DNA of 64,000 nt. Source: Squalus acanthias (lineage: Eukaryota). The position numbers and the translations under genes are program-made. Location: NCBI GenBank assembly GCA_030390025.1, contig JASTWF010000337.1, positions 62,001 to 126,000 of the forward strand, read 5' to 3'. The notes below the pieces were generated by a model. That model was not told the origin of the DNA. It saw nothing but the letters and a program-made list of their open reading frames with translations, and searched no databases. Numbering within the stretch: the first letter of the stretch is position 1; each line of letters begins with the position of its first letter. Shown piece by piece: positions 1,999-21,200 of this stretch.

Positions 1999-3382
1999 TG
2001 TAAGGGGTTACGGTTCAGGGTGCTTGTGCGAGGTTAGGCCTTCTTGCTTGCTCTGGTCTCCAGCCAGCCTTGTTGCAATAAGCACCTGTGAGTGGTTCGA
2101 CCCACTCGCCCTTACGGTTCTAACACTGGACTTAGGTGCGAGAGCAGTAATGCATTGAAAACTCAAATAGACCCGGTTGAATAGTACGAAATGGAAATCT
2201 TTATTGCATAACGTCCAAAATCATGAAGTACATGTCATAGGCACAAATTAATGACAGTACAAGTATACATACATTCATAAAACTTGGTCTAGGGTAATGA
2301 GGATCGCACGGCACATTGTAAAAAGGGGAACACATTATATTTATCCTTAATAAAACCACCCTCCCCTATTAATACCTACACTAATCTAGATTTGTAAGAT
2401 CGAGGAAACATGCTCACCACTCGTGATACTTCGGAGAATTTTTAAACGAGGCACTCGGCTTGTTTCGCTGCAACACCTGACTGTCACGTGTTGGAAGGGG
2501 TCTCTGTACCCCACTTGTTTATTTTCGCTGCTCCGGCAAGCAGGCTGGGCTCCCCGTTGTCATGAAGAACTCGACAGTGCTCGGACACGGTTGTAGAAGT
2601 CCAGAGAGACAATCAAAAGCTCACCAGTCAAGCAAGTCCATGAAGCGGCAAGCGAATAAGAGTTCAGCAGTCATCAGCCAGATAAGAGACATAAGCAAGA
2701 GTTCAGCCCGAGTCAAGATTCGAATCAAGAGAATAAGCCTTTGATGAACATTTGTTCACTATAGTTATAGTGCTGTGTTCCCTTATCTCCCGCTCAAATC
2801 TTGATGTTTATCCTTTGTGTAATACTGGTGCACAAAACTCCCAGCATGGGGCGATTCTTTCCTTTAATGGGTTTCGGTAGCACCTTAAACTGGCCAACTA
2901 CCCGTTAATGCTTTCCCCATTGTCGAACCGGCTAGGAGTCTCCCTGACTGGTTTTGGGGCCTTCTCGAATACTGACTTAATCACCCGTGAATGGCTCTCT
3001 CATTGTAGAGCCGTGGGGGTAGTTGTGGATTGATGTATCTGGATGGGCCTTCGATTGCCCAGTACAATGGTCCTTACTTGTGCATGGAAAACGATTCCAG
3101 CACTTATCTCTTGCTATTGTGTCGAATGCAGACAGGTTGCATCCTGTCTTTATCAGTGTTTGCTGCGTATTAGCCAATCTTTACTGAAATGTTTATTCGA
3201 ACGCCATTTTGTCTGCCCACTGAAATTCTGGAAGCTTCTGCCACGAGGTGCGGTGGCCATTTTACAGGCTTCTTGTGTCCGTTTTTTGAACCTGACAGCA
3301 TTTTGCTGAAATAAAGCTGTTTTACGAAACTGTATGTCTCTTTCTCATTATTTTGAAATCGCGATAATTTGCGAATTCTACA
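1999..3382 (-). repeat. 3' LTR (1384 bp)
   Basis: Direct repeat of 9339-10722 with about 12 substitutions by eye and no indels. AATAAA on the minus strand at 2200-2205. Confidence 0.95.
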
Positions 3383-3394
3383 GTCCCTCCTGTT
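3383..3394 (-). promoter_or_regulatory. Polypurine tract of LTR element 2
   Basis: Minus-strand AACAGGAGGGAC immediately precedes the TGTAGAA start of the 3' LTR. Confidence 0.65.
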
Positions 3395-3831: not shown

Positions 3832-6151
3832 TTACGCGGCGCCTTCTTCGTGCATGCGCACGTAACGCTCTCGCCACTCTCCTGTGTTTTCCTGCTTGGT
3901 GAGGCGCTTGCCCCTCCTGCAATGTACGACCAATAGGTACACTACAATTATGACCTGGCATACAACTAAAATGTGGGAGGCTATTCTAATCCAGGAGGGC
4001 ACTTCAATGTTGGTGAACAGATCCCACCACGGTGGGATTACTATGTCTAGGATCTCTGACCCTATCTCGACGGTCTTTTGCTCAAGGGTATAAAAATGTT
4101 TTTGCGATACCGCGACGGCTTTCAAAAGCTTGGTGAGGTGTTCAGGGAGAGGGGGAATGAGGTATCCGAAATGCGCGACGAATCGCTGCAAGTCGGTGAA
4201 ATTCTCTTTTACTGTTAGATGAACAGTGGATGGTTCAGGGATCGGGACAATTCGCTGCTGTGCCACTTGAACTTCAGCCCTGGGTTTAAAACAGAAACTG
4301 CTGTCACTCACCGGACACCGGCTGCGGTTTCCATGCTGGTAGTGTTGCGCTGCAGTGGTAATGCAATACGTTCCACCCCCTATGTATGCCACCTGCGGAG
4401 GCACATGATCTTGTGCCATTGCCTCCATGGTGCAATTCATGGGCTTGGCGCCAGCCGTTCTGAACCCACACTGTGGTGATAAAAAGGTATTCAAGTGCTG
4501 GGGACACAGGATTATGTGTGCTCCCCTGCCACGACAACCAGAGAGATCTGTACCTGTCATCGTTTGCTCCCAGCGGATGACGTAAGGTGGGACCGCTGCG
4601 TAGCGAATGTGGGCTCCCCCCTGAATGACACCAATGTTCTCTACCCGATACACCGGGGCGGGCTTTGCTGTGTCGCCCAAAACCGACATACGTAAAACTA
4701 TACCCATAATGGTATGGTTTGATCGTCCGCAGTCCACGGGGACTGGGTATGCTTCTGAGGCTAGCCTGAGCTGGCACGGGCTTAATGCGTTCTGAAAAGG
4801 GTGGAGTGCCTGCAGGTGTTTGTTACTTATCCAGGACGGGACCAAACCTTGTTTTAAATCCTCCAAATTACTGCGGCCCTCGCCCAGTAACCACGCCCCG
4901 TATAGGACGCATTCCGATCTTCCCTGATCAGGGCATTTACCGTACGCTCGTGTTTCTCCAGCTCTGCTATAATTTCCTTTAAGTGTAGCGTCATGGCCTG
5001 GTCTTCATGTAACCCCGACCCAACCACCTTATTTTCGTCTGTAAGAATATTTTTTAATTGTGTTTTTAAACCATTAATCTGGGTCTGCAACTCCACGTTG
5101 TCTGGAGCATTGACCACAGATGTTCCTGTATTAAAAGCGGTGAACATATCGTTCACAATACCCCTTCTTTGTCTCCCCACCTGGCCCAAAACTTCGTGTG
5201 GTGTGGCGTACAAGCTTGTCTTGTCAATCTCTGCAAAATCAAACTCGTAGAATTGTCTAAACATATTGGTCAACAGGACTTGATATAACTGTTCCGTCTC
5301 TTTGGGGCACCACTTTGGCAACCGCACCTCGGTGAGGTTTAAAATCACCGAGGCCACCGCGTAATGTACCCCCTGAAATAGTATCTGGTCTGTTGGGACC
5401 AGTACCAAACCATTCCCGGGCCCCTTAGTGGTTTTAGGGCACCCTTCCTCCTGAGCCAAAACCACCGGAATCGTGGGCGGGGCCTTGCGTGGGCGCGTGA
5501 TGAGTTCAGTGGCATTTACCGGGATCGGAGAGTATGGGGCTCCGCACCCCCTGGTGCTGACATCCCACCTCATCCCTTTCCCGTTGTCCTGCCACTGGTT
5601 TACGAAAAATATGGAGATGCCTTTGGGGCAAACGTGCTTTGACCCCCACATACATACATAAATTCCCTCATCGGTTCCCACCATTTGTCCCAACAGACTT
5701 TCAATTGTCCGTTAGTCCCCGTAATTGTCCGATGGGTATTATTACCCAAGCGCTCCCACTCAACCGAGGAATTTCTCATATTCTTGTTCAATTTCCGTAG
5801 CCACCACCATCGGCTCAATGGGACATTCCCTTTACAAGTCAAACAAATCCTTTTGCCGACGGTGACTCTGATCCTGGGTGCAATGATCCTCACTTTGGGG
5901 CACATCAAAGAAGTCTCTTTGTAGGCAAATCCCGATGTACTGGAGTATTCAGTTGAATTCGTTCCCAGCCATCCTGGCCACCTTCCCTTGTGGAAATAAG
6001 TGGCGGTCTCCTCAGCCTCTCGCCTCCCGGTCCCATCCGTCGCGATGGGGGCCGTGTCCCCGGAGCAACCAAATACCACGACATCCTTGGTGCGGCCTCG
6101 ATAGGCCAATCCACATCCAAATGCCGCGAGCACTACCAGAATCCGTTCCAT
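3832..6151 (-). pseudogene. env: Env: class I (F-like) fusion glycoprotein with signal peptide and putative Ig-like domain; two frameshifts
   Basis: Signal peptide MERILVVLAAFGCGLA (ATG at 6151); furin site RQRR (5174-5163) followed by GIVNDMFTAFNTGTSV and a heptad region; Cys-rich region; TM at about 3920-3990; short tail. Split over track ORFs 5600-6268, 4854-5693 and 3832-4866, with frameshifts near 5677 and 4905. Confidence 0.85.
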
Positions 6152-6460
6152 CCTTCCTTGGTTCCTGTGATCAGATAACATGAGGTAGCCAGCCTCCCAA
6201 GAGTCTCTGGCTTTTGTGAAGGGTGAGCGGGTCCCCTGACCTCGCCTCACGTAAGAAGACATGTGCACTGGATAGATCTTTTAACTAAACCTAATCTAAA
6301 CTCACTCCCGTCATTTATCTTTTACTTATCAAAATTAAACTATAAGACTTAACCTGATTAAAACTGTAAACTTAGACTTATAAACTTACAAACTTTAACT
6401 TAAACTTCTAACTTATCCTTAACTTATAAACTGTACAGCGCCGCCCGTTCCCAGGGCGGC

Positions 6461-7543
6461 CTAGCTAAATTCTTCGAAGGCTGCCACGAGCTTTTCCCAG
6501 TGGTGGGAGGGCACTGACCCCTTCCTTTGATCTGCCGCAGCCTGTCGCTGCTGCGCTGGGACTGGGATCTCCCTGGGCTGCCTTGACCTTGAACTTACGC
6601 CTGGGGGCGTACGGGGACTTGACCACGCCTTCCTGGGCTGGGGTGTCCGACCTGATCTACGGAGGGCTACATTGGACAAGGTTTCCAGGGCCGACGGACC
6701 GGGTACCGAGACTTCCACCGTCGCGGCCTGTGGTCCCACCACAGCCGCTGGCTCCGTCTCCCCTGGCTCCGCCTCCCTGAACTCGGGATTTGCAGTTTCT
6801 GGTACCACCCTACTTGGCCCAGTATGTGGTCCTCCACTCACAATCCCTACCTCCCCCAAGGGCAAGACTTCCAAGGCTGACGGACCGGGTTCCGAGACTT
6901 CCACTGTCACGACCTGTGGTCCTACCACAGCCGCTGGCTCCGTCTCCCCTAGCTCCGCCCCCCTGGGCTCAGGACCTGCAGTTTCTGATTCCACCCTGTG
7001 TGGATCTCCACTAGCAATCCCTATCTCCCCTAAGCTTGAGTCAAGGACGAACCTTTCGTCCTCCGATCTCAGCACCTCTCCGATCGGGTCACTATCTTGT
7101 TCGAGCTCCTCGAGCTCTCCCTCATCGGAATCCCGACACCAAGAAAAGATCCTACACTTTTCTAGAATGTCCTCTCCCCTCAAGCAGGCTGCTTTACCGG
7201 TCTGTGTGCCCTGCTGTCCTGCTTGGGGCTGAGAGTCCCCACTCGCAGGTCTGGCCCCTCCCCTAAGACAGGCCACCGCCCCTGCTTGTGCATTCGGTGA
7301 AATCTCACCTGCTGGAGGCTGCAGATTTCTATTCTGTTTTAAATCCTCATACTCCCTGCTCCTGGCTACCCTATAGGCTGCTTTTATGTCTCTAAGCTGC
7401 CCTTCTAGCCCATCTATTTTCCCCATTAAGCGGGCGTTCTCCTCCCGCAAGGCCTGCTCTTTTAACCTGGCCTCCTTACAGGAGACCCCCTCCTGTGCGC
7501 GTCTTTCAAGGGGACACAGGTAGGCAGGCTGCACCGGTTCCAG
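6461..7543 (-). CDS. Unknown ORF3 in the pol position: coiled coil, acidic Pro/Glu-rich tandem repeat, basic tail
   Basis: Open frame of about 360 codons starting directly after TGA at 7546-7544, with no ATG until the M of RLMGK at about codon 40. Contains two copies of an ~60-aa repeat (...GETEPAAVVGPQ..TVEVS.PGPSALE). Confidence 0.65.
   Translation of the reverse strand: MEPVQPAYLCPLERRAQEGVSCKEARLKEQALREENARLMGKIDGLEGQLRDIKAAYRVARSREYEDLKQNRNLQPPAGEISPNAQAGAVACLRGGARPASGDSQPQAGQQGTQTGKAACLRGEDILEKCRIFSWCRDSDEGELEELEQDSDPIGEVLRSEDERFVLDSSLGEIGIASGDPHRVESETAGPEPRGAELGETEPAAVVGPQVVTVEVSEPGPSALEVLPLGEVGIVSGGPHTGPSRVVPETANPEFREAEPGETEPAAVVGPQAATVEVSVPGPSALETLSNVALRRSGRTPQPRKAWSSPRTPPGVSSRSRQPREIPVPAQQRQAAADQRKGSVPSHHWEKLVAAFEEFS
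6675..7035 (-). repeat. Two-copy imperfect ~180-bp tandem repeat inside ORF3
   Basis: The block GACGGACCGGGT.CCGAGACTTCCAC...CAGCCGCTGGCTCCGTCTCCCCT occurs at 6693 and 6879 (offset 186) with the frame preserved. Confidence 0.85.
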
Positions 7544-9334
7544 TCAGAAGTCCGGGTTGCATGGGGCCGTTGCTACCTTCCCGTGTGAAATCATAAGGCT
7601 CCCAACATTGATTCTATCGCATCGGGATGGATAGGCACACCAGCTCCTCTCTCAGAGACAGGCGCTTGGGTTCGGGCTGCGGGATTTTTATCCCTGGGGT
7701 CCTTCCAGGGGTTCCTACAGTTCTTACGCCAGTGACCTGTCTTCCCGCACCCGTAACAAGCACCACTGGCTTGTGGGGCGCGGTTTCCCTCCTGATGCCA
7801 CTCTTTTTTGGGCCGGGGCCGCGGGCCGTGCCTCATGCACCTTTCCCTTAAGGGGACGCGCTCCCGTGCTCCTAGTGTTCCGATATCCTGTCGTGAGTCG
7901 ATTTAGGACCGACTCCTCTGTTGTGGCGGGGTTAGTGGGATCAAACCACGCTTTGGCCTGCTCCCTGACGGCTGGCAAACTGTTGGCTACTAAACACCTG
8001 AGCCAATGAGTTAAACCGACACCATCCAGATCGTCGCGCGCTGGCGCACCTGGGCAGCTATGCTGGTATACTGGCCACAGCCTGTCGGCGAAAACCTTCG
8101 GGGGTTCTCCCTCCATCTCAACTGTCTGACCCAATCTAACGAACGGACCTTCGTCGTCCGCCCCCAACACTTCTAGGACCTCGTCCCTTAACTTCTCATA
8201 GGTATTATTTCCCCTCTTGCTCTCGTCTGAGAGACACTGAAGGATCGAGCTGTCTAATGAGAACAACAGCATTTTGGTCTTTTCCGCATCGTCGCAGCCA
8301 TTAATTGCTGCGGTCTGTTCTACCTCCCTGAAGTGTACGGAAGGGTCGTCTGACTCAGACAGCTTCCGTACATGACTAATCATTGCTCTCAGCTGGTGTG
8401 AGCTGTGAGGCAACACAAGCTGGTTCAGGACATCCCCGTTCTCCCCATTGGCTCCGTTCGGGCCCCTCTTGTGACCTGTAAGTGGACACAACGGTCCCGG
8501 CTTCGACACTACCTCTGGGGATTGTTCTACCTCGGGGACCTCCTCTTCTATTTCCACCACTTCCTTCCTTACCCAGGTTGCCGAATAGCTGGGTGGCGTG
8601 GAGGGTGCAGTGGCAAATACCTCCTCTGCTTTGTCTGGTAGGGATTTTGGGAATTCCCTACCCACCTGTGGCTGGTGTGCTGATGGGCTGATGAGGCACA
8701 CCATGCCGTTTGCCTTATTCAGGGCCTCTCTTAGGTTCCCTATCTCCTTCTGGCAAACACTGTGGTCGGCTCCCTCAAGCCTATCCTCGAGGGCCATCTT
8801 ATATGCCGCCATAACTCCCAGCAAGCTTTCTTCTTGGGCTTTTATCTAGTTAGCTAGGCGGACACACCGTTCTCTAATCCTACCCTCGTTTAACTTTGAT
8901 TCCGTGACCTGACACTCTAGGTAATCAATTTTAGCCTCATGGTGGTTGGCTACTATCTGGCGTTCCTGATGTAACGCATTCAAGGATGCAATGAGTTTTT
9001 GTCCTCCCGTGACCTTTTCCTCCATCTCAACCTCCAATTCCCTGATCTGAGCTGCCTGTGCCACAATGACCTGGTCCGAAAGTTGGACTTGCTTCTTGTA
9101 GCACATCAGCCAGACCACTTTCTCTACCGACTTCTTATGCTCTTTACTGTCTGTCCATTTGATGGCTGCGTCTAGCGGACGCTTATCCATCAGCAGGTCA
9201 CTTATCCACCTTTTGGTTAAGTTAACCTTCCCAAACACATAGTCGGCTACCCTCTCATCCATCACATTTCGCCTATTCACACCAGGGTCTAAAACATTAC
9301 TCTCTCGCTGCCAGCCTCGTGCCGCGGTCGCCAT
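7544..9334 (-). pseudogene. gag: Gag (coiled-coil N-terminus, capsid-like middle, CCHC zinc knuckle); one in-frame stop and frameshifts
   Basis: ORFs 8846-9334 and 7724-8824 are in the same frame, separated by a single TAG. The knuckle CYGCGKTGHWRKNC lies in the +1 frame after an A6 run at 7804-7809. The 3' end at TGA 7544 is inferred and needs one more 1-nt correction near 7598. Confidence 0.8.
9320..9333 (-). promoter_or_regulatory. Primer-binding site, tRNA-Arg(UCG)-like
   Basis: TGGCGACCGCGGCA starts 5 nt after the 5' LTR and is complementary to the 3' end ...UGCCGCGGUCGCCA of a vertebrate tRNA-Arg(UCG), recalled from memory and not searched. Confidence 0.75.
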
Positions 9335-9338
9335 TTTC

Positions 9339-10722
9339 TGTAAGGGGTTACGGTTCAGGGTGCTTGTGCGAGGTTAGGCCTTCTTGCTTGCTCTGGTCTC
9401 CAGCCAGCCTTGTTGCAATAAGCACCTGTGAGTGGTTCGACCCACTCGCCCTTACGGTTCTAACACTAGACTTAGGTGCGAGAGCAGTAATGCAGAGAAA
9501 ACTCAAATAGACCCGGTTGAATAGTACGAAATGGAAATCTTTATTGCATAACGTCCAAAATCATGAAGTACATGTCATAGGCACAAATTAATGACAGTAC
9601 AAGTATACATACATTCATAAAACTTGGTCTAGGGTAATGAGGATCGCACGGCACATTGTAAAAAGGGGAACACATTATATTTATCCTTAATAAAACCACC
9701 CTCCCCTATTAATACCTACACTAATCTAGATTTGTAGGATCGAGGAAACATGCTCACCACTCGTGATACTTCGGAGAATTTTTAAACGAGGCACTCGGCT
9801 TGTTTCGCTGCAACACCTGACTGTCACGTGTTGGAAGGGGTCTCTGTACCCCACTTGTTTATTTTCGCTGCTCCGGCAAGCAGGCTGGGCTCCCCGTTGT
9901 CATGAAGAACTCGACAGTGCTCGGACACGGTTGTAGAAGTCCAGAGAGACAATCAAAAGCTCACCAGTCAAGCGAGTCCATGAAGCGGCAAGCGAATAAG
10001 AGAACAGCAGTAATCAGCCAGATAAGAGACATAAGCAAGAGTTCAGCCCGAGTCAAGATTCGAATCAAGAGAATAAGCCTTTGATGAACATTTGTTCACT
10101 ATAGTTATAGTGCTGTGTTCCCTTATCTCCCGCTCAAATCTTGATGTTTGTCCTTTGTGTAATACTGGTGCACAAAACTCCCAGCATGGGGCGATTCTTT
10201 CCTTTAATGGGTTTCGGTAGCACCTTAAACTGGCCAACTACCCGTTAATGCTTTCCCCATTGTCGAACCGGCTAGGAGTCTCCCTGACTGGTTTTGGGGC
10301 CTTCTCGAATACTGACTTAATCACCCGTGAATGGCTCTCTCATTGTAGAGCCGTGGGGGTAGTTGTGGATTGATGTATCTGGATGGGCCTTCGATTGCCC
10401 AGTACAATGGTCCTTACTTGTGCATGGAAAACGATTCCAGCACTTATCTCTTGCTATTGTGTCGAATGCAGACAGGTTGCATCCTGTCTTTATCAGTGTT
10501 TGCTGCGTATTAGCCAATCTTTACTGAAATGTTTATTCGAATGCCATTTTGTCTGCCCACTGAAATTCTGGAAGCTTCTGCCACGAGGTGCGGCGGCCAT
10601 TTTACAGGCTTCTTGTGTCCGTTTTCTGAACCTGACAGCATTTTGCTGAAATAAAGCTGTTTTACGAAACTGTATGTCTCTTTCTCATTATTTTGAAATC
10701 GCGATAATTTGCGAATTCTACA
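9339..10722 (-). repeat. 5' LTR (1384 bp)
   Basis: Direct repeat of 1999-3382; minus strand reads TGTAGAATTC...CCCCTTACA and is followed by the PBS. Confidence 0.95.
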
Positions 10723-11905
10723 CATCCCGGGCAGCAATGTGCTCCCATGCTGCTGACCCATCCGCCTCCACAAGGTCTTCCTCCTCCTCCTCTTCCTCTT
10801 CCTCTTCCTCCTCATCTGAGGATGCTGTGCGCTGAGCCACTTGTTCCTCAGGCAGCTGCAAGCCACGATGTTGTGAAGTGCACAGCAGACCACGACGATT
10901 CTGGAGACCCTGGCTGCTGAGTACTGTAGGGCTCCACCTGATCTGTCAAGGCATCTGAATTGCATTTTGAGCAAGCCGATGGTTTGCTCGATGATGGCTC
11001 TGGTGGAAATGTGGCTCACATTGTAGCGGTCCTCAGCTTCGTTTGATGGCCTCCTCAACGACGTCATTAACCATGTCTTCAGGGCATAGCCCTTGTCTCC
11101 AAGTAGCCATCCGGAAAGTTGTGTTGGCGGATTGAAGAGCTGAGGCACAGTAGACTGCCGCAGGATGAACGAGTCATGGCAACTGCCAGGGAACTTGGCG
11201 CAAACATGCATAATGTCCTTCCTGTGGTTACACACCAGCTGGACGTTAAGGGAGTGGAAGCTCTTGCGGTTGACAAATACAGCTGGGTTGTGATGGGGTT
11301 CCCTAATGGCCACATGTGTGTGGTCTACGACGCCCTGCACACTTGGCAAACCTGCCAGCTTTGCAAAGCCAACCGCACGCGTGGTTACACTTGCTTCATC
11401 CATGGAGAGGTGGATGTAATTGTGCGCCTTTGCAAAGATGGCATCGGTAACCTGCGTGATGCAGGTGTGTGTGGCTGACTGGGAGATGCCGCTGATGTTT
11501 GCTGATGATTCCTGGAAGGACCCTGAAGCAAAACATTTGAGCGCGGTGGTGACTTTGACAGCCACTGGTAAGGAGTGTCCACCCGCTCCTCTAGGCTCCA
11601 GGTGCAGCAGTGCGCAGATGTCAGCGACTACCTCTCGCGAAAGTCTCAACGTGCTTTGGCACTGCTGCTCTGTTGGCAATGTTGAGGAAGCTCATCCTCA
11701 TCCTGTAAACCCTGTGTTGGGGGTATCTCCTGCGGCGTGGAGCAGCCCTGCGCTGACGCCCTCTGCCCTGTGCAGCATCAGGTGGGTGAGGAGGAGGTTG
11801 GCGCTCCTGTTGTTGCTGCTGCTGTTGTGCCTGGTTCTGCTGCTGCCGTGGCTGCTCTTCCTCCGAATCTGAGGACCAGGATGAGAGGATATAAATGGTT
11901 CTCAT
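10723..11905 (-). pseudogene. Harbinger/PIF DDE transposase (HARBI1-like), frameshifted and interrupted
   Basis: Motifs [55 protein letters not shown] and CCALHN. Frameshifts near 11680 and 10860; the C-terminus is at 1960-1998. Confidence 0.9.
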
Positions 11906-12310: not shown

Positions 12311-13022
12311 TTCTTTTTCAATTTGTTTATGAGATGTGGACATCGCTGGCAAGGCCAGCATTTATTGCCCATCCCTAATTGCCCTTGAGAAGGTGGTGGT
12401 GAGCCGCCTTCTTGAACCGCTGCAGTCCGTGTGGTGAAGGTGCTCCCACAGTGCTGTTAGGGAGGGAGTTCCAGGATTTTGACCCAGCGACGATGAAGGA
12501 TCGGCGATATCCTTCTCAGTCAGGGTGGTGTGTGACTTGGAGGGGAACTTGGAGGTGATGGTGTTCCCATGCGCCTGCTGCCCTTGTCCTTCTAGGTGGA
12601 AGAGGTCGCGGGTTTGGGAGGTGCTGCTGAAGAAGCCTTGGCGAGTTGCTGCAGTGCATCTTGTAGATGGTACACACTGCAGCCACGGTACGCCGGTGGT
12701 GGAGGGAGTGAATGTTTAAGTTGGTAGATGGGGTGCCAATCAAGTAGGCTGCTTTGTCCTGGATGATGTCGAGCTTCTTGAGTGTTGTTGGAGCTTCACT
12801 CATCCAGGCAAGTGGAGAATGTTCCATCACACTCTTTACTTGTGCTTTGTAGATGGTAGAAAGGCTTTGGTGAGTCAGGAGGTGAGACATTAGCCACAGA
12901 ATACCCAGCCTCTGACCTGCTCTTGTTGCCACAGTATTTATGTGGCTGGTCCAGTTAAGTTTCTGGTCAATGGTGACCCCCAGGATGTTGATGGTGGGGG
13001 ATTCGACGATGGTAATGCCATT
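12311..13022 (-). mobile_element. 5'-truncated non-LTR retrotransposon 3' end (CR1/L2 group, distinct from the CR1s downstream)
   Basis: ORF 12516-12932 (IYKAQVKSVMEHSPLAW...KKLDIIQDKA...SLHHRR) resembles a LINE ORF2 C-terminus and is followed by a 3' UTR with an A-rich end. Satellite flanks both sides. Confidence 0.75.
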
Positions 13023-16000
13023 GTGAGTGTGTGAGAGAATGTCAGTGTGTGTGAGAGACTGAGTGTGTGAGAGACTGTGAGTGTGAGATAGACTATGAGT
13101 GTGTGAGAGACTGTGAGTATGTGAGAGACTGTGATTGTGCGAGGGACTGTGATTGTGCGAGGGACTGTGAGTGTGAGAGAGACTGTAAGTGTGGGAGAGG
13201 CTGTGAGTGTGTGAGAGACTGTGAGTGTGTGAGAGAGACTGTGAGTGTGAGAGAGACTGTGAGTGTGTGAGAGACTGTGAGTGTGTGAGAGACTGTGAGT
13301 GTGTGAGAGACTGTGAGTGTGAGAGTCTGTGAGTGTGTGAGAGACTGTGAGTGTGAGAGACTGAGTGTGTGAGAGACTGAGTGTGTATGAGAGACTGTGA
13401 GTGTGAGAGAGACTGAGTGTGAGAGAGACTGTGAGTGTGTGAGAGATTGTGAGTGAGCGAGAGAGACTGTGAGTGTATGAAAGACTGAGTGTGTGAGAGA
13501 GACTGTGAGTGCGTGAGAGAGACTGTGAGTGTGAGAGACTGTGAGTGTGTGAGAGAGACTGAGTGTGTGAGAGAGACTGTGAGTGTGTGAGAGACTGTGA
13601 GTGTCTGAGAGAGACTGTGAGTGTGTGAGAGACTGTGACTGTGTGAGAGAGACTGTGAGTGTGTGAGAGACTGAGTGTGTGAGAGAGACTGTGAGTGTGT
13701 GAGAGACTGTGAGTGTGTGAGAGACTGTGTGTGAGAGAGACTGTGAGTGTGAGAGAGACTGTGAGTGTGACAGAGACTGTGAGTGAGAGAGAGACTGAGC
13801 GTGTGAGAGAGACTGTGAGTGTGTGAGAGAGACTGAGTGAGTTTGAGAGACTGTGAGTGTGAGAGACTGTGCGTGTGTGAGACTGTGAGTGTGTGAGAGA
13901 CTGAGTGTGTGAGAGACTGTGCGTGTGTGAGACTGTGAGTGTGTGAGAGACTGAGTGTGTGTGTGAGTGTGTGTGAGAGGCTGAGTGTGTGTGTGAGTGT
14001 GCGTGAGAGATTGAATGTGTGAGAGACTGAGTGTGTGTGTGAGTGTGTGTGAGAGACTGAATGTGTGAGAGACTGAGTGTGTGTGTGAGTGTGTGTGAGA
14101 GACTGAGTGTGTGTGTGAGTGTGTGTGAGAGACTGAATGTGTGAGAGACTGAGTGTGTGTGTGAGTGTATGAGAGAGACTGAGTGTGTGTGAGAGTGTGT
14201 GAGAGAGACTGAGTGTGTGTGTGAGTGTGTGAGAGAGACTGAGTGTGTGAGAGACTGTGCGTGTGTGAGACTGTGAGTGTGTGAGAGACTGAGTGTGTGT
14301 GAGTGTGTGAGAGAGACTGAATGTGTGAGAGACTGAGTGTGTGTGTGAGTGTGTGTGAGAGGCTGAGTGTGTGAGAGAGACTGTGAGTGTGTGAGAGACT
14401 GAGTGTGTGAGAGAAATTGTGAGTGTGTGAGAGACTGTGAGTGTGTGAGTGAGTCTGCGAGTGTGTGTGAGAGACTGTGAGTGTGTGAGAGGGACTGTGA
14501 GTGTGTGAGAGGAAATGTGAGTGTGTGAGAGGGACTGTGAGTGTGTGAGAATGACTGAGTGTGTGAGAGAGACTGAATGTGTGAGAGGCTGTGAGTGTGT
14601 GAATGACTGAGTGTGTCAGAGAGTCTGTGAGTGTGTGTGAGACTGAGTGTGTCAGAGAGATTGTGAGTGTGTGTGAGAGACTGTGAGTTTGTGTGAGAGA
14701 CTGAGTGTGACAGAGACTGAGTGTGACAGAGACTGAGTGTGTGAGAGACTGAGTGTGTGAGATACTGTGAGTGTGTGAGAGAGGATGCGAGTGTGTGAGA
14801 GACTGAATGGGTGAGAGGCTGTGAGTGTGTGAATGACTGAGTGTGTCAGATAAACTGTGAGTGTGTGTGAGACTGAGTGTGTGAGAGACTGAGTGTGTGA
14901 GAGAGATTGTGAGTGTGTGTGAGAGACTGTGAGTTTGTGTGAGAGACTGAGTGTGACAGAGAATGAGTGTGACAGAGACTGAGTGTGTGAGAGACTGTGA
15001 GTGTGTGAGAGAGACCAGTAGTATTTGTGAGAGACTGTGAGTGTGTGTGAGAGTCTGTGAGTGTGTGTGAGAGACTGTGAGTGTGTGAGGGAGACTGTGA
15101 GTGTATGATAGACTGAGTGTGTGAGAGACTATGAGTGTGTATGAGAGACTGTGAGTGTGTGAGAGAGATTGTGAGTGTGTATGAGAGACTGTGAGTGTGT
15201 GAGAGAGATTGTGAGTGCGTATGAGAGACTGAGTGTGTGAGAGACTATGAGTGTGTGAGAGACTGAGTGTGTGAGAGACTATGAGTGTGTGAGAGACTGA
15301 GTGTGTGAGAGAGATTGTGAGTGTGTGTGAGAGACTGTGTGTGTGAGAGACTATGAGCATGTGAGAGACTATGAGTGTGTGAGAGACTGAGTGTGTGAGA
15401 GACTGTGAGTATGTGAGAGACTGTGAGTGTAAGAGACTGTGAGCGTGTGAGAGACTGTGAGTGTGTGAGAGACTGTGAGTGTGTGAGGGAGATTGTGAGT
15501 GTGTGAGACTGAGTGTGTGTGAGACTGTGAGTGTGTGAGAGACTATGAGCGTGTGAGAGACTGAGTGTGTGAGAGACTGTGAGTATGTGAGAGACTGTGA
15601 GTGTGAGAGACTGTGAGCGTGTGAGAGACTGTGAGTGTGTGAGGGAGATTGTGAGTGTGTGAGACTGAGTGTGTGTGAGACTGTGAGTGTGTGAGAGAGA
15701 CTGTGATTGTGTGAGAGACTGAGCGTGTGAGAGACTGAGCGTGTGAGAGACTGAGTGTGTGAGAGAAACTGTGAGTGTGTATGAGAGATTGTGAGTGTGT
15801 GATACTGAGTGTGTGAGAGACTGAGTGTGTGAGAGAGACTGTGAGTGTGTATGAAAGATTGTGAGTGTGTGAGACTGAGTGTGTGAGAGACTGTAAGTGT
15901 TTGCGAGACTGAGTGTGTGAGAGACTGAGTGTGAGAGAGAGTGTGAGTGTGACAGAGACTGTGAGTGAGAGAGAGACTGAGCGTGTGGGAGAGACTGTGA

Positions 16001-16707
16001 GTGTGAGAGACTGTGAGTGTGAGAGACTGAGTGTGTGAGAGAGATTGTGAGTGTGTGTGAGAGACTGTGAGTTTGTGTGAGAGACTGAGTGTGACAGAGA
16101 ATGAGTGTGACAGAGACTGAGTGTGTGAGAGACTGTGAGTGTGTGAGAGAGACCAGTAGTATTTGTGAGAGACTGTGAGTGTGTGTGAGAGACTGTGAGT
16201 GTGTGAGGGAGACTGTGAGTGTATGATAGACAGAGTGTGTGAGAGACTATGAGTGTGTATGAGAGACTGTGAGTGTGAGAGAGAGATTGTGAGTGTGTAT
16301 GAGAGACTGAGTGTGTGAGAGACTATGAGTGTGTGAGAGACTGAGTGTGTGAGAGACTGTGAGTATGTGAGAGAGATTGTGAGTGTATATGAGAGACTGA
16401 GTGTGTGAGAGACTATGAGTGTGTGAGAGACTGAGTGTGTGAGAGACTGTGAGTATGTGGGAGATTGTGAGTGTGTGAGATTGAGTGTGTGAGAGACTGT
16501 GAGTGAGAGAGACTGTGAGTGTGTGAGAGAGACTGTGAGTGTGTGAGAGACTGAGCGTGTGAGAGACTGAGTGTGTGAGAGAGACTGTGAGTGTGTATGA
16601 GAGATTGTGAGTGTGTGAGACTGAGTGTGTGAGAGACTGAGTGTGTGAGAGAGACTGTGAGTGTGTATGAAAGATTGTGAGTGTGTGAGACTGAGTGTGT
16701 GAGAGAC
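13023..16707. repeat. Satellite, ~16-22-bp monomer GACT(GT)GAGTGTGT(GA)n
   Basis: Continuous tandem variants of GAGAGACTGTGAGTGTGT; a short patch of the same repeat also lies at 12257-12310. Confidence 0.95.
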
Positions 16708-17017
16708 TGTGGGAGAATCTAGAACTAGGGGTCACTATTTAAAAATAAGAGGTCGCCCATTTAAGACAGAGATGAGGAGAAATTTTTTCTCACAGAGGGT
16801 CATGAGACTTTGGAACTCTCTTCCTCAGAGGGCGGTGGAAGCAGAGTCTTTGAATATTTTTAAGGCAGAGGTAGACAGATTCTTGGTAAGCAAGAGGATG
16901 AAAAGTTATCGGGGGTAGGTGGGAATGTGGAGTAATCGAAACAGCCATGATCTTATTGAATGGCGGAGCAGGCTCGAAGGGCCGAGTGGCCGACTCCTGC
17001 TCCTAATTCATATGTTC
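16708..17017 (+). mobile_element. CR1 LINE 3' fragment
   Basis: GESRTRGH.LK...EMRRNFFSQRV..LWNSLP ORF2 tail, 3' stem-loop GGAGCAGG...CCTGCTCC and a TATGTT end. Very similar to 32047-32355. Confidence 0.9.
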
Positions 17018-18226
17018 GAGAGACTGTGAGTGTGTGAGAGAGACTGTGAGTGTGTGAGAGAGACTGTGAGTGTGTGAGAGAGACTGTGAGTGTGTGTGAG
17101 AGACTGTGAGTGTGTGAGAGAGACTGTGAGTGTGTGAGAGAGACTGTGAGTGTGTGAGAGAGACTGTGAGTGTGTGTGAGAGACTGTGAGTGTGTGTGAG
17201 AGACTGAGTGTGTGAGAGAGACTGTGAGTGTGTGAGAGAGACTGTGAGTGTGAGAGAGAGACTGTGAGTGTGTGAGAGAGACTGTGAGTGTGTGAGAGAG
17301 ACTGTGAGTGTGTGAGAGAGACTGAGTGTGTGAGAGAGAAAGTGAGTGTGTGTGAGAGACTGTGAGTGTGTGAGAGAGACTGTGAGTGTGTGAGAGAGAC
17401 TGTGAGTGTGTGAGAGAGACTGTGAGTGTGTGAGAGAGACTGAGTGTGAGAGAGAGACTGTGAGTGTGTGAGAGAGACTGTGAGTGTGTGAGAGAGACTG
17501 TGAGTGTGAGAGAGAGACTGTGAGTGTGTGAGAGAGACTGTGAGTGTGTGAGAGACTGAGTGTGTGAGAGACTGAGTGTGTGAGAGACTGTGAGCGTGTG
17601 CGGGAGCCTGTGAGTGTGTGAGAGAGACTGTGAGTGTGAGACTGAGTGTGTGAGAGAGACTGTGAGTGTGTGAGAGAGACTGTGAGTGTGTGAGAGACTG
17701 TGAGTGTGTGAGACAGACTGAGTGTGTGAGAGAGACTGTGAGTGTGTGAGAGAGACTGTGAGTGTGTGAGAGACTGAGTGTGTGAGAGAGATTGTGTGTG
17801 TGTGTGAGAGACTGTGACTCTGTGAGAGAGTCTGTGAGTGTGAGAGATACTGTGAGTGTGTGTGAGAGACTGAGTGTGTGAGAGACTGAGTGTGTGAGAG
17901 GCTGTGAGTGTGTGAGAGAGTCTGTGATTGTTTGAGTGACTGTGAGTGTGAGAGAGAGACTGTGAGTGTGTGAGAGAGACTGTGAGTGTGTGAGAGAGAC
18001 TGTGAGTGTGTGAGAGAGACTGTGAGTGTGTGTGAGAGACAGTGAGTGTGTGTGAGAGACTGTGAGTGTGTGAGAGAGACTGCGAGTGTGTGTGAGAGAC
18101 TGTGAGTGTGTGAGAGAGACTGTGAGTGTTTGAGAGAGACTGTGAGTGTGTGAGAGAGACTGTGAGTGTGTGTGAGAGACTGTGAGTGTGTGAGAGAGAC
18201 TGTGAGTGTGTGAGAGAGACTGTGAG
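17018..18226. repeat. Satellite, mostly regular 20-bp monomer GAGAGAGACTGTGAGTGTGT
   Basis: Tandem array seen directly. Confidence 0.95.
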
Positions 18227-21200
18227 TGTCGTAAGAATGAGCCTTACGCGTGGTGAACTTAAAGTAAGCTTTAATCAACTAAAAAAGGTGCTACATACAA
18301 AAGAGGTCTTACTCTATGCCTCTCCAGGATCCAACTGATCAGTCCAGTATTTATCCTGGACTAATCACAGGAAGTGATGCAATAAAGTTCGAGTCACAGG
18401 AAGCTGTATTGTGTTACCACATTCTCCCCCCACAAAAGATTAGGAGGCCGGGATGAAGTTCGAGTCACAGGAAGCTGTATTGTGTTACCACATTCTCCCT
18501 CCATTTCGTAGCCGCTGGACGAGGGAGAGCCGCACCCGTTTGGGTTCTCGTAGCGGTAGAGGGCCCCTAGCCCGTTTACCCGCCGCAGGCCGTGGACCAG
18601 AGTCCGAGTGATCCAGCCCGCTCTGTGAGGGGTCAGGACGATCCTGACTGTGTACTGGTGCCCGAACGGGTGTCGGGCAGGGCTGTGGCAGATCCGTTTC
18701 TGAGCGTACGGTACAGGGTGGAACGTGGCTGCGCGTGCGAGCCCCGACGGGCTCATAGTCAGTCTGCCCCAGGTCGGCACGCTGGAGTGAGGTACCAGCC
18801 GGCGTTAGATCCAGATCGTGATGAGAGGCACCTGGCGAGCCCAGAGATGTGCCTGGTACAATATCATCCCCTGGTGTCCCTCTATGTTTCGGCGGGCAGG
18901 GAGCCAGATCCCGCAATGACACGGTAGATTCCCGACCGTCAGGATACCGAATATAGGCGTAGGTAGGGTTGACATCAGTGAGCTCAACCTCATCTACCAG
19001 GGGGTCATTCTTAGACGCCCGGACATATCTTCGGAGTAGCACTGGTCCCGGTGCAGTCAGCCACGACGGGAGAGATATCCCATAGGATGAGCGACGCTGA
19101 AATCGGAAGAACCGTTCATGAGGCGTCGTATTTGTGGCGGTCGAAAGGAGGGACCGTGTGGAGTGTAATGCGTCTGGAAGTACTGCTTCCCATTGCTGGT
19201 TGGGTAGGCCCCGAGATCTCAAAGCCAGACGTACCGCATTCCAGATGATAGCGTTAAAACGCTCGACTTGCCCATTCCCGACCGGATGATAAGGCGTCGT
19301 TTTGCTGGCAGCAATACCCCGTTCCGAGAGATAGGCCTTGAGTTCTCCTGACATAAAAGAAGGGCCCCGATCCGAATGAACATAGGATGCCATGCCACAG
19401 AAAGCAAATACCTGCTCAAGGCAGCTGATAACCGTGGACGTCAGCATATTGGGGCAGGGAAAGGCAAACGGAAAACGGGAATACTCATCGACCATGGTCA
19501 ATAGATGAGTGTTGCGAGTTGAAGAGGGCAATGGCCCCTTAAAATCGATGCTAAGCCATTGCATTGGCTGGGTCGCATGTATGAGTATACCACCCGAGGG
19601 GCGGAAAAACCGAGGTTTCAATTCCGCACAGACTCTGCAGTCCGAGCACATCTTCTTTACATCCCCGGTAGAGAATGGGAGATTTCGGGACCGCACGAAG
19701 TGTAGCATGCGAGTAACGCCCGGATGACACAACCCATCATGGATGTCTACGAGCGTAGAGGGTGCCATGGCGGAGCAGAATGCTCGTGTGAGGGTATCTG
19801 GAGCCACATTCTCCTTGCCAGGTCGATAGTGGATGGTGTAACCAAAAGAGGCCAATTCCAGCCGCCAAAGCTGGATTTTATTATTTTTAATTTTGGTCCG
19901 TTTTCGATTATCGAGCATGAAGGCGACCGATCGCTGGTCCGTGATAAAGGTAAAGTGCTGGCGAGCTAGGAGGTGACTCCACTTCCGTACTGCCTCTATG
20001 ATGGCTGTAGCTTCTTTCTCGACTGGAGGATAATGTAGCTCAGTCCCTTGAAAAGTCCTGGACAAAAATGCCACCGGACGACCTTCCTGATTCAGAGTGG
20101 CCGAGATCGCCACCTCCGAGGCATCACACTCAACGACAAAAGGAAGACTCTCATCGATGGAGTGAAGAGTCGCTTTCTGCAACTGTTTTTTCAGGAGGTT
20201 AAAGGCTGCAACAGCCGCTGTGTCTAGTGGGAATGTGCTGGCCTTCAGTAGAGGTTGGATTCGGTCCGAGAAGTTAGGAATCCATTTAGCATAGTATGCA
20301 AACAGGCCGAGGGCCCGGCGCAAGGAGGCCGGATTCTTAGGTGGCGGGAGTTCTTGGAGTGGGCGAAGCCTTTCAGGGTCAGGTTTAATGATGCCATTGC
20401 CCACACAATAGCCAAGGATGTTGATGGTTGGTTGTGACTCAATGGATTTAGCCGCATTTAATGTCAAATTACGGTGCTGGAGTGCATCCCAAAATCGCTG
20501 GAGATTGGCGTCATGTTCCCGCTGATTGCGACCTGTGACAGTAATATTGTCCAGATAAGGAAACGTATCCTTCAAGTCTTCCTGTTTGACCAGGTCATCC
20601 ATTGCTCGCTGGAAGACAGCCACTCCATTAGTGACCCCAAAGGGGAGGCGACGAAATTGATACAGCCGTCCATTGGCTTCAAAGGCCGTATACTGCTTGT
20701 CTGAGACCTTCAAGGGTACCTGATGATAGGCACTTTTTAGATCATATGTTGAGAACACCGTGTACTCAGCCAATTTATTAACCATATCATCGATGCGCGG
20801 CAATGGGTATGCGTCCAAGTCCGTATATTGATTGATGGTCTGTGAATAGTCAATGCACAGCCGTTTCTTGTGAGGTTGTAGAGGGTTCTTAACAATAACG
20901 ACCTGGGCGCGCCATGGCGACGAACAAGGCTCGATGATATCCTCTGCTAAAAGCCGAGAAATCTCAGCCGCAATAAAAGACTGGTCTTCCTGACTGAAAC
21001 GTCGTGACTTTGTTATAATTGGTTTGCATCGAGGAGGGATACTGGAAAACAGTGAGGGTTCATCCAGTGAAGCTGCTGACAATGCACAGAATGGTAATCG
21101 AGGTAGTATATTAGAAATAGGGAGTTCAGGTTTAGATCCGCCGAACTCAATGGTGAGCTTCTTATGCTGCTTTTGAAAATCCAGCCCTAAGATAAGATCA

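Follow-up and report, generated by a model that had tools for sequence, protein, structure and literature searches.

The 64,000-nucleotide (nt) stretch of the Squalus acanthias genome analysed here (assembly GCA_030390025.1, contig JASTWF010000337.1, positions 62,001 to 126,000 of the forward strand; hereafter the window, whose own numbering is used throughout) carries a provirus on its minus strand, arranged in the order long terminal repeat (LTR), primer-binding site (PBS), gag, ORF3, AT-rich spacer, env, polypurine tract (PPT) and LTR. The gag frame closes at TTC TGA CTG (stop at 7546-7544, minus strand) and this stop is followed by 360 open codons (7543-6461), exactly as an initial annotation, made from the sequence alone, had described. 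That annotation placed ORF3 in the Pol slot behind a readthrough-type stop. On balance we consider it probable that intact members of the family make Gag together with a minor, useful Gag-ORF3 fusion through an inherited UGA-CUR switch (R, purine). The features concerned are:

7544..9334, minus strand: gag, with an N-terminal coiled coil, a capsid-like domain and one CCHC knuckle
7540..7546, minus strand: gag stop with its 3' context, TGA CTG G, a candidate readthrough site from sequence and comparisons
6461..7543, minus strand: ORF3, 360 codons in frame after the gag stop, first ATG at 7426
7337..7480, minus strand: homologue of the Gag coiled-coil end (ORF3 residues 22-69), from profile and BLASTP comparisons
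6674..7034, minus strand: in-frame tandem duplication (period 186 nt, 80% identical) in the acidic Pro/Gly-rich middle of ORF3
6464..6664, minus strand: basic Pro/Arg/Ser-rich tail of ORF3, containing an LRRS-x-R-x-P motif and closing in a short hydrophobic segment; no Pfam match
7485..7529, minus strand: possible stem-loop starting 15 nt after the stop, weakly supported

The gag end and the frame behind it

The gag frame matched Pfam zf-CCHC (E 3e-4) and Atlas gag-like clusters (0.91-0.93), and PDB sequence searches with Gag returned mainly zinc-knuckle and coiled-coil matches. Searched with X at its stops against 1.84 billion protein representatives, it gave 27 matches, including unbroken Gags 619 and 628 residues long; the homologues P0002 and P0004 were 43% and 36% identical to it. 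By alignment, intact homologues stop at a similar place to the TGA at 7546-7544, and the peptide upstream of this TGA matched the C-terminal motif of the intact P0002 (score 30, reached in 0 of 500 shuffles), beyond which P0002 extends by 17 residues. The same peptide showed no significant match to the more distant Gags P0004, P0029 and P0030 (65-121 of 500 shuffles scored as high), and one comparison in another frame in this test reached 8 of 500 shuffles. To bring gag to this stop, the initial annotation had assumed a 1-nt lesion near 7598. The break there is real, but it is not a single base: X12 record 11 (7533-7806), the sole displayed contig spanning it, differs in length by more than one base, and the difference is compatible with an unbroken frame. 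The assignment of the gag frame to the TGA holds because of the P0002 end match and the length of this record, and the comparisons support the TGA as the natural end of gag, in frame with ORF3.

The two other minus-strand frames over the ORF3 stretch contain 19 stops each, and a frame as long as ORF3 was seen in 1 of 1000 order-2 Markov simulations. The reported lack of an ATG near its 5' end is accurate within ORF3, where the first ATG is codon 40 (7426), although a further in-frame ATG lies upstream of the stop, at 7594. TGA followed by CTA or CTG was found at 1 of the 77 TGA triplets of the internal region, this being the gag stop itself; over the initial 12.5 kb of the minus strand the figure was 7 of 186. 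A type II readthrough site has UGA followed by CUA or CGG, an in-frame ORF behind it and a stimulatory stem-loop on the 3' side; in human cells, UGA-CUA alone gave ~1.5% readthrough and UGA-CUAG contexts up to 31%, and in OPRL1 the three bases following the C were critical (PMC4132726). Thus the presumed leakiness of UGA before CUA or CUG has been measured for CUA, but CUG is listed only as a natural variant, UGACUG, in one alphavirus, Trocara virus (PMC13517186), and UGA-CUG is a less established readthrough context than UGA-CUA.

Part of the stretch was contained in 20 of the 22 listed sequencing runs, which come from several organisms; four runs were aligned, and 40 of the 651 rows of their difference table were listed. 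Many variant contigs covered gag, ORF3 and the start of env in all four (no copy number is implied), X12 record 11 crosses the gag stop into ORF3, and the family has been amplified with the same pol-less layout. Neither a splice-type joint nor a loose end into pol was present among the rows listed, beyond which lay 448 loose ends, 611 substitutions and 28 indel rows. A contig of run X6 (organism B), aligned from 7532 downstream with 21 loose letters over 7553-7533, has TGA in exact register, followed by CTA-G. Relative to the window, its first three codons after the stop carry silent third-position changes only, the fourth codon differs, and so do 6 of the 7 letters preceding the stop; agreement with the window is 9 of 11 letters for the stop plus codon positions 1 and 2, vs 1 of 10 for all others (Fisher p 0.0016, post hoc). 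Because the conserved codons precede any ATG, the pattern is that expected of translated readthrough, and it points, in this one contig, to coding-type conservation directly behind the stop.

Content and apparent upkeep of ORF3

The initial annotation regarded ORF3 as a different cargo travelling by the Pol route, a view that finds no support in that form: ORF3 begins with a copy of the Gag coiled coil and is therefore not foreign cargo. A profile built from 13 Gag homologues gave residues 22-69 a score of 20.4 bits, where the highest of 500 shuffles reached 6.0, and BLASTP matched these residues to 9 of 18 Gag homologues at E<=0.05. At the DNA level the 5' part of ORF3 did not resemble the gag of the same element (41 of 300 shuffles scored as high), so the coiled coil did not arise by recent duplication within the element and is either old or derived from another subfamily. 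Residues 141-300 have a net charge of -23, and the last 60 residues, after the LRRS-x-R-x-P motif, are basic. We take this motif to be one of integrase tails, and on that likeness the tail may be an integrase remnant. Overall, ORF3 resembles a Pol frame that has been rearranged more than it does a gene captured from elsewhere. The short motifs G-x-V/A-x-x and L/M/V-C/Y-P-L/V recur at domain borders (gag residues ~210, 282, 497 and 585; ORF3 residues 9, 88 and 116) and also in Gag homologues, and are candidate protease sites; the motif at ORF3 residues 9-12 repeats that at the capsid start and may, by inference, be such a site.

In-frame length variants of 3, 69, 39, 171 and 186 nt were found in ORF3. 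Five of the six independent length variants of known size were multiples of three (p 0.018), a count that leaves out two joints with undetermined letters in between, only one of them a multiple of three; one length variant in the spacer and one gag deletion were not multiples of three. The 18 substitutions listed for the ORF3 frame include none that makes a stop (substitution tallies use 35 of the 40 listed rows, five outside the gag and ORF3 frames being left out). These counts support upkeep of the ORF3 frame, with an exception at 6612 that is taken up below. The ORF3 frame looks kept and its amino acids loosely so, as expected of a mostly disordered protein, and a recent expansion could give a similar picture.

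Element architecture, Env and lokiretroviruses

The remaining features of the provirus are:

9339..10722, minus strand: 5' LTR, 1384 nt with TG...CA ends; 99.1% identical to the 3' LTR by self-BLAST (12 mismatches, 0 gaps)
1999..3382, minus strand: 3' LTR, the self-BLAST partner of the 5' LTR
10723..10726 (5' copy) and 1995-1998 (3' copy), minus strand: target-site duplication (TSD) of 4 bp in the flanking sequence
9320..9333, minus strand: PBS, starting 5 nt past the LTR and overlapping the first gag ATG at 9334
3383..3394, minus strand: PPT, directly 5' of the 3' LTR in element orientation
6152..6460, minus strand: AT-rich non-coding spacer, poorly conserved between copies, with a candidate env splice acceptor near 6166
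3832..6151, minus strand: env, with signal peptide, RQRR site, fusion peptide, heptad repeat and transmembrane segment; predicted paramyxovirus-F-type class I fusion protein

The LTRs, PBS, PPT and TSD are all present and the enzymes are absent, as in a non-autonomous LTR element; no Pfam match to protease, reverse transcriptase (RT) or integrase families was found in the seven element ORF pieces scanned. The LTR element is young. The window copy is dead: gag is interrupted by a TAG (8848-8846) and loses its frame twice, near 7805 and near 7598, and env is broken near 5705 and near 4900. Because of the TAG and the break near 7805, neither of which the initial annotation had recorded, this copy cannot make a Gag-ORF3 fusion. 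The PBS is presumably of the tRNA-Arg(UCG) type, and the Gag homologue P0004 opens with the same first residues as the window gag, whose ATG overlaps the PBS. An SnRV-like identity, which we took the Arg primer and coiled-coil Gag to suggest, was set aside, as SnRV has UAG-GGC.

Within the spacer, 6284-6411 consists of short AGTTTA-like repeats with near-zero cover in all four runs, plus a length variant, which suggests either that this segment changes far more quickly than the sequence on both sides or that filtering has removed it. The element is inserted close to the 3' end of a Harbinger-type DDE transposase frame (Pfam DDE_Tnp_4, E 3e-35), among its last codons; this frame (10510-11691) seems to resume for ~11 codons past the 3' LTR (1960-1998). 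Approximately 12500-12950 is, we presume from its likeness, a C-terminal remnant of a LINE RT. Very long, strongly skewed simple-repeat arrays with a period of 8-10 nt occupy ~13000-18500 and 33000-64000, more than half of the window.

Env homologues were found at 58-82% identity, and the named Gag and Env homologues come from sharks and one skate, plus one distant frog Gag. One Env homologue, P0031 (69% identical to env), was assigned by Atlas to PF00523 (0.92, 201 shared features), and motifs of the window Env are, by eye, common with the Env of lokiretroviruses (Loki). Env thus has the traits of an F-type fusogen (Mononegavirales F-like), as judged from these comparisons; no Pfam family or PDB sequence match was obtained for the F-type assignment. 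The N-terminal part of Env (5720-5890) had a weak Ig_3 match (E 0.13). In the whale-shark gene models P0023 and P0014, Gag pieces run straight into the N-terminus of Env, pointing either to other relatives with internal deletions or to models joined in error.

Lokiretroviruses share with the window element the LTR-gag-(pol)-env layout, a coiled-coil 'smc' region before the capsid, an F-like Env and a gag stop in frame with the next ORF (TGA-CTA in seven Loki consensus genomes, TGA-CTG in the window), but the window element has no pol (PMC7947760). All four entries titled Gag protein in the Wang and Han lokiretrovirus supplement end in TGA, and a motif search placed TGA-CTA at the gag end in at least 7 of 24 consensus genomes, with G next in Ofa, Cne, Pyo and Sau and A next in Bsp, Dcl and Lro (PMC7947760). 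By eye, all seven run stop-free into the pol frame; several of the other 17 are annotated as a single gag-pol frame (PMC7947760). These seven gag ends are candidates for conserved type II readthrough, and the nearest known F-env lineage appears to use a UGA-CUA junction for Pol. The words readthrough, stop codon and frameshift are missing from the main text of PMC7947760, as is 'loki' from a 2026 review of animal-virus readthrough (PMC13517186). Together, the F-type env and the Loki gag-end junction support by analogy the Pol-slot reading of ORF3, which also draws on the in-register TGA-CTA-G of X6.

Compared by eye with Loki Gag excerpts, the window Gag likewise has a coiled coil and a capsid, but it has a CCHC knuckle and shows no evident likeness to them (PMC7947760). 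Lokiretroviruses were reported in 0 of 6 cartilaginous-fish genomes screened (PMC7947760), and the window homologues are mainly from sharks and a skate, outside the reported Loki host range. We filed the element as Loki-like and not as a lokiretrovirus because of this host range and because it has no RT, tether or RNase H by which to place it. The possibility that ORF3 is the Loki 'smc' gene was rejected, since smc precedes gag. In an elephant-shark endogenous retrovirus supplement neither the PBS motif nor TGACTAG was found, in a format whose line breaks can hide matches.

Competing explanations and a proposed route

Comparison supports both a readthrough-type junction and upkeep of the frame behind it, and several results weigh against a useful fusion. 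The window context is UGA-CUG and not the measured motif CUA(G), so leakiness of the window stop is plausible but probably weaker. RNA structure 3' of the stop is weak (stem-loop z +0.6 to -1.7; 5 of 10 overlapping windows below z -2). The X6 comparison restricted to letters downstream of the stop gave p 0.06, and the in-register evidence comes from a single contig with 21 loose letters, which may represent a copy with ORF3 or one with pol. Protein, viral-contig and metagenome-contig searches found no relative that carries pol: none of 8000 candidates matched in the search of the gag fragment against longer proteins, and pattern matches for the DNA context of relatives were confirmed in 0 of 8 and 0 of 44 cases among viral contigs and 0 of 208 and 0 of 596 among metagenome contigs. 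Two protein searches likewise gave no full-length homologue of ORF3 (0 of 8000 candidates in the near-length search). In all four runs a minority of contigs carry one extra base at 6612. A further record, over 6432-6799, changes in net length by a number of bases not divisible by three, and counting this ambiguous record as out of frame lowers the in-frame tally to 5 of 7 (p 0.045). Finally, 7 of 18 listed substitutions were synonymous in ORF3 vs 12 of 17 in gag, so that ORF3 seems less constrained.

Some of these points fit the idea that the leaky junction and open frame are baggage left from the loss of pol, with a functionless fusion and a frame that persists through recent expansion from few source copies. 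The weak synonymous bias, the frameshifting variant at 6612 in all four runs and the two protein searches without a homologue outside the family are all as this idea would have it, as are the low-complexity content of ORF3 and the young LTRs. However, ORF3 is covered in three organisms by copies whose identity falls as low as 80-90%, its length variants are mostly in frame (5 of 6), and the diverged X6 contig carries silent-only changes behind the stop; we regard persistence without function as unlikely, though it is the alternative that survives best.

ORF3 might otherwise be a separate accessory protein started at ATG 7426 on a spliced or internally started RNA, with TGACTG serving as a splice branch point (consensus yUnAy). 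The ATG at codon 40 has G at +4, and an AG at 7504-7503 lies ~40 nt past the TGAC with 75% pyrimidines upstream of it. Yet the Gag-homologous segment begins at residue 22, ahead of this ATG, the codon-type conservation in X6 starts directly behind the stop, and neither a canonical donor in 7400-9720 nor a canonical acceptor in 7400-7620 turned up in a pattern search, which makes such a protein distinctly improbable. That a single long gag-ORF3 frame, comparable to the direct gag-pol fusion of mouse IAP 1-delta-1, acquired the TGA through a private nonsense mutation would suit a copy with several other disabling lesions and a difference list (40 of 651 rows) that leaves room for a change at 7544-7546, but it is very hard to credit given that the stop is in register in a diverged relative, falls at the end point of homologous Gags and is the same stop as in the TGA-CTA gag end of seven lokiretroviruses (PMC7947760).

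Returning to the favoured account, a Gag-ORF3 fusion made by readthrough, we infer for intact members not only readthrough but also packaging, a helper and some role for the fusion. The family would be a helper-dependent LTR element of which the window copy is a disabled member, and the UGA in its C-U-purine context at the gag end would descend from the Gag-Pol junction of an ancestor that still had pol. At this UGA most ribosomes would terminate and release Gag, and a few percent would read through and append ORF3, giving a minor Gag-ORF3 protein of ~950 residues that would co-assemble with Gag into particles as Gag-Pol would. ORF3 would then be the old Pol frame minus its enzymes, comprising a few junction residues, the Gag coiled-coil end for a second time, a low-complexity acidic linker whose length varies, and lastly the basic tail. 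It would most likely act in cis, like the IAP 1-delta-1 fusion, bringing the element's own RNA and Gag to the Gag-Pol of a helper, perhaps via the extra coiled coil.

The closest analogue is mouse IAP 1-delta-1, a non-autonomous, amplified element that has lost its enzymes and has Gag fused to the remaining frame, with the fusion reported to act in cis; its fusion is direct and in frame, arising from one deletion, and it is without env (PMC6466679). The window element differs in keeping full Gag, its stop and env, so that readthrough would yield its fusion in minor amounts only, and the coiled coil would be present twice in it. Gamma-, epsilon-, SnRV-like and class III retroviruses similarly have an in-frame stop after the zinc knuckle and a downstream frame without its own start, but their contexts are UAG-G, UGA-AGA, UGA-CGA or UGA-AGU and feed protease and RT (PMC13517186, PMC8278194); the window junction has an alphavirus-like type II context and would give a non-enzymatic product. 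Stop-codon suppression also appends a non-enzymatic, env-like ORF in SIRE1, a plant copia element in which readthrough occurs at the end of an intact pol (Havecker and Voytas 2003, as cited in PMC2829016). Zebrafish Bhikhari (Bik-1/2) is likewise non-autonomous, Loki-related and endowed with a coiled-coil Gag, but encodes Gag only, with no env or second ORF described in the part of the preprint considered (bioRxiv 10.1101/2024.03.25.586437). The literature searched, with most subscription papers and Repbase outside its scope, held no description of this element family or of lokiretrovirus readthrough, and the sole paper containing both Loki and 'read-through' uses the latter for transcripts.

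A bolder version, which we offer as a tentative possibility, is that a satellite-type provirus keeps the UGA-CUR switch under selection to dose a purpose-evolved Pol mimic, in which a long acidic tether bearing another Gag coiled coil would capture helper Gag-Pol or particles for the element's own RNA, and that a lineage-wide UGA-CUA readthrough has gone unremarked in F-env vertebrate retroelements. Non-autonomous proviruses and Gag-Pol readthrough are already known. If the proposal is true, a pol-less element that keeps Gag, Env and a recoding switch for a non-enzymatic extension would bear on how defective retroelements compete for helper enzymes.

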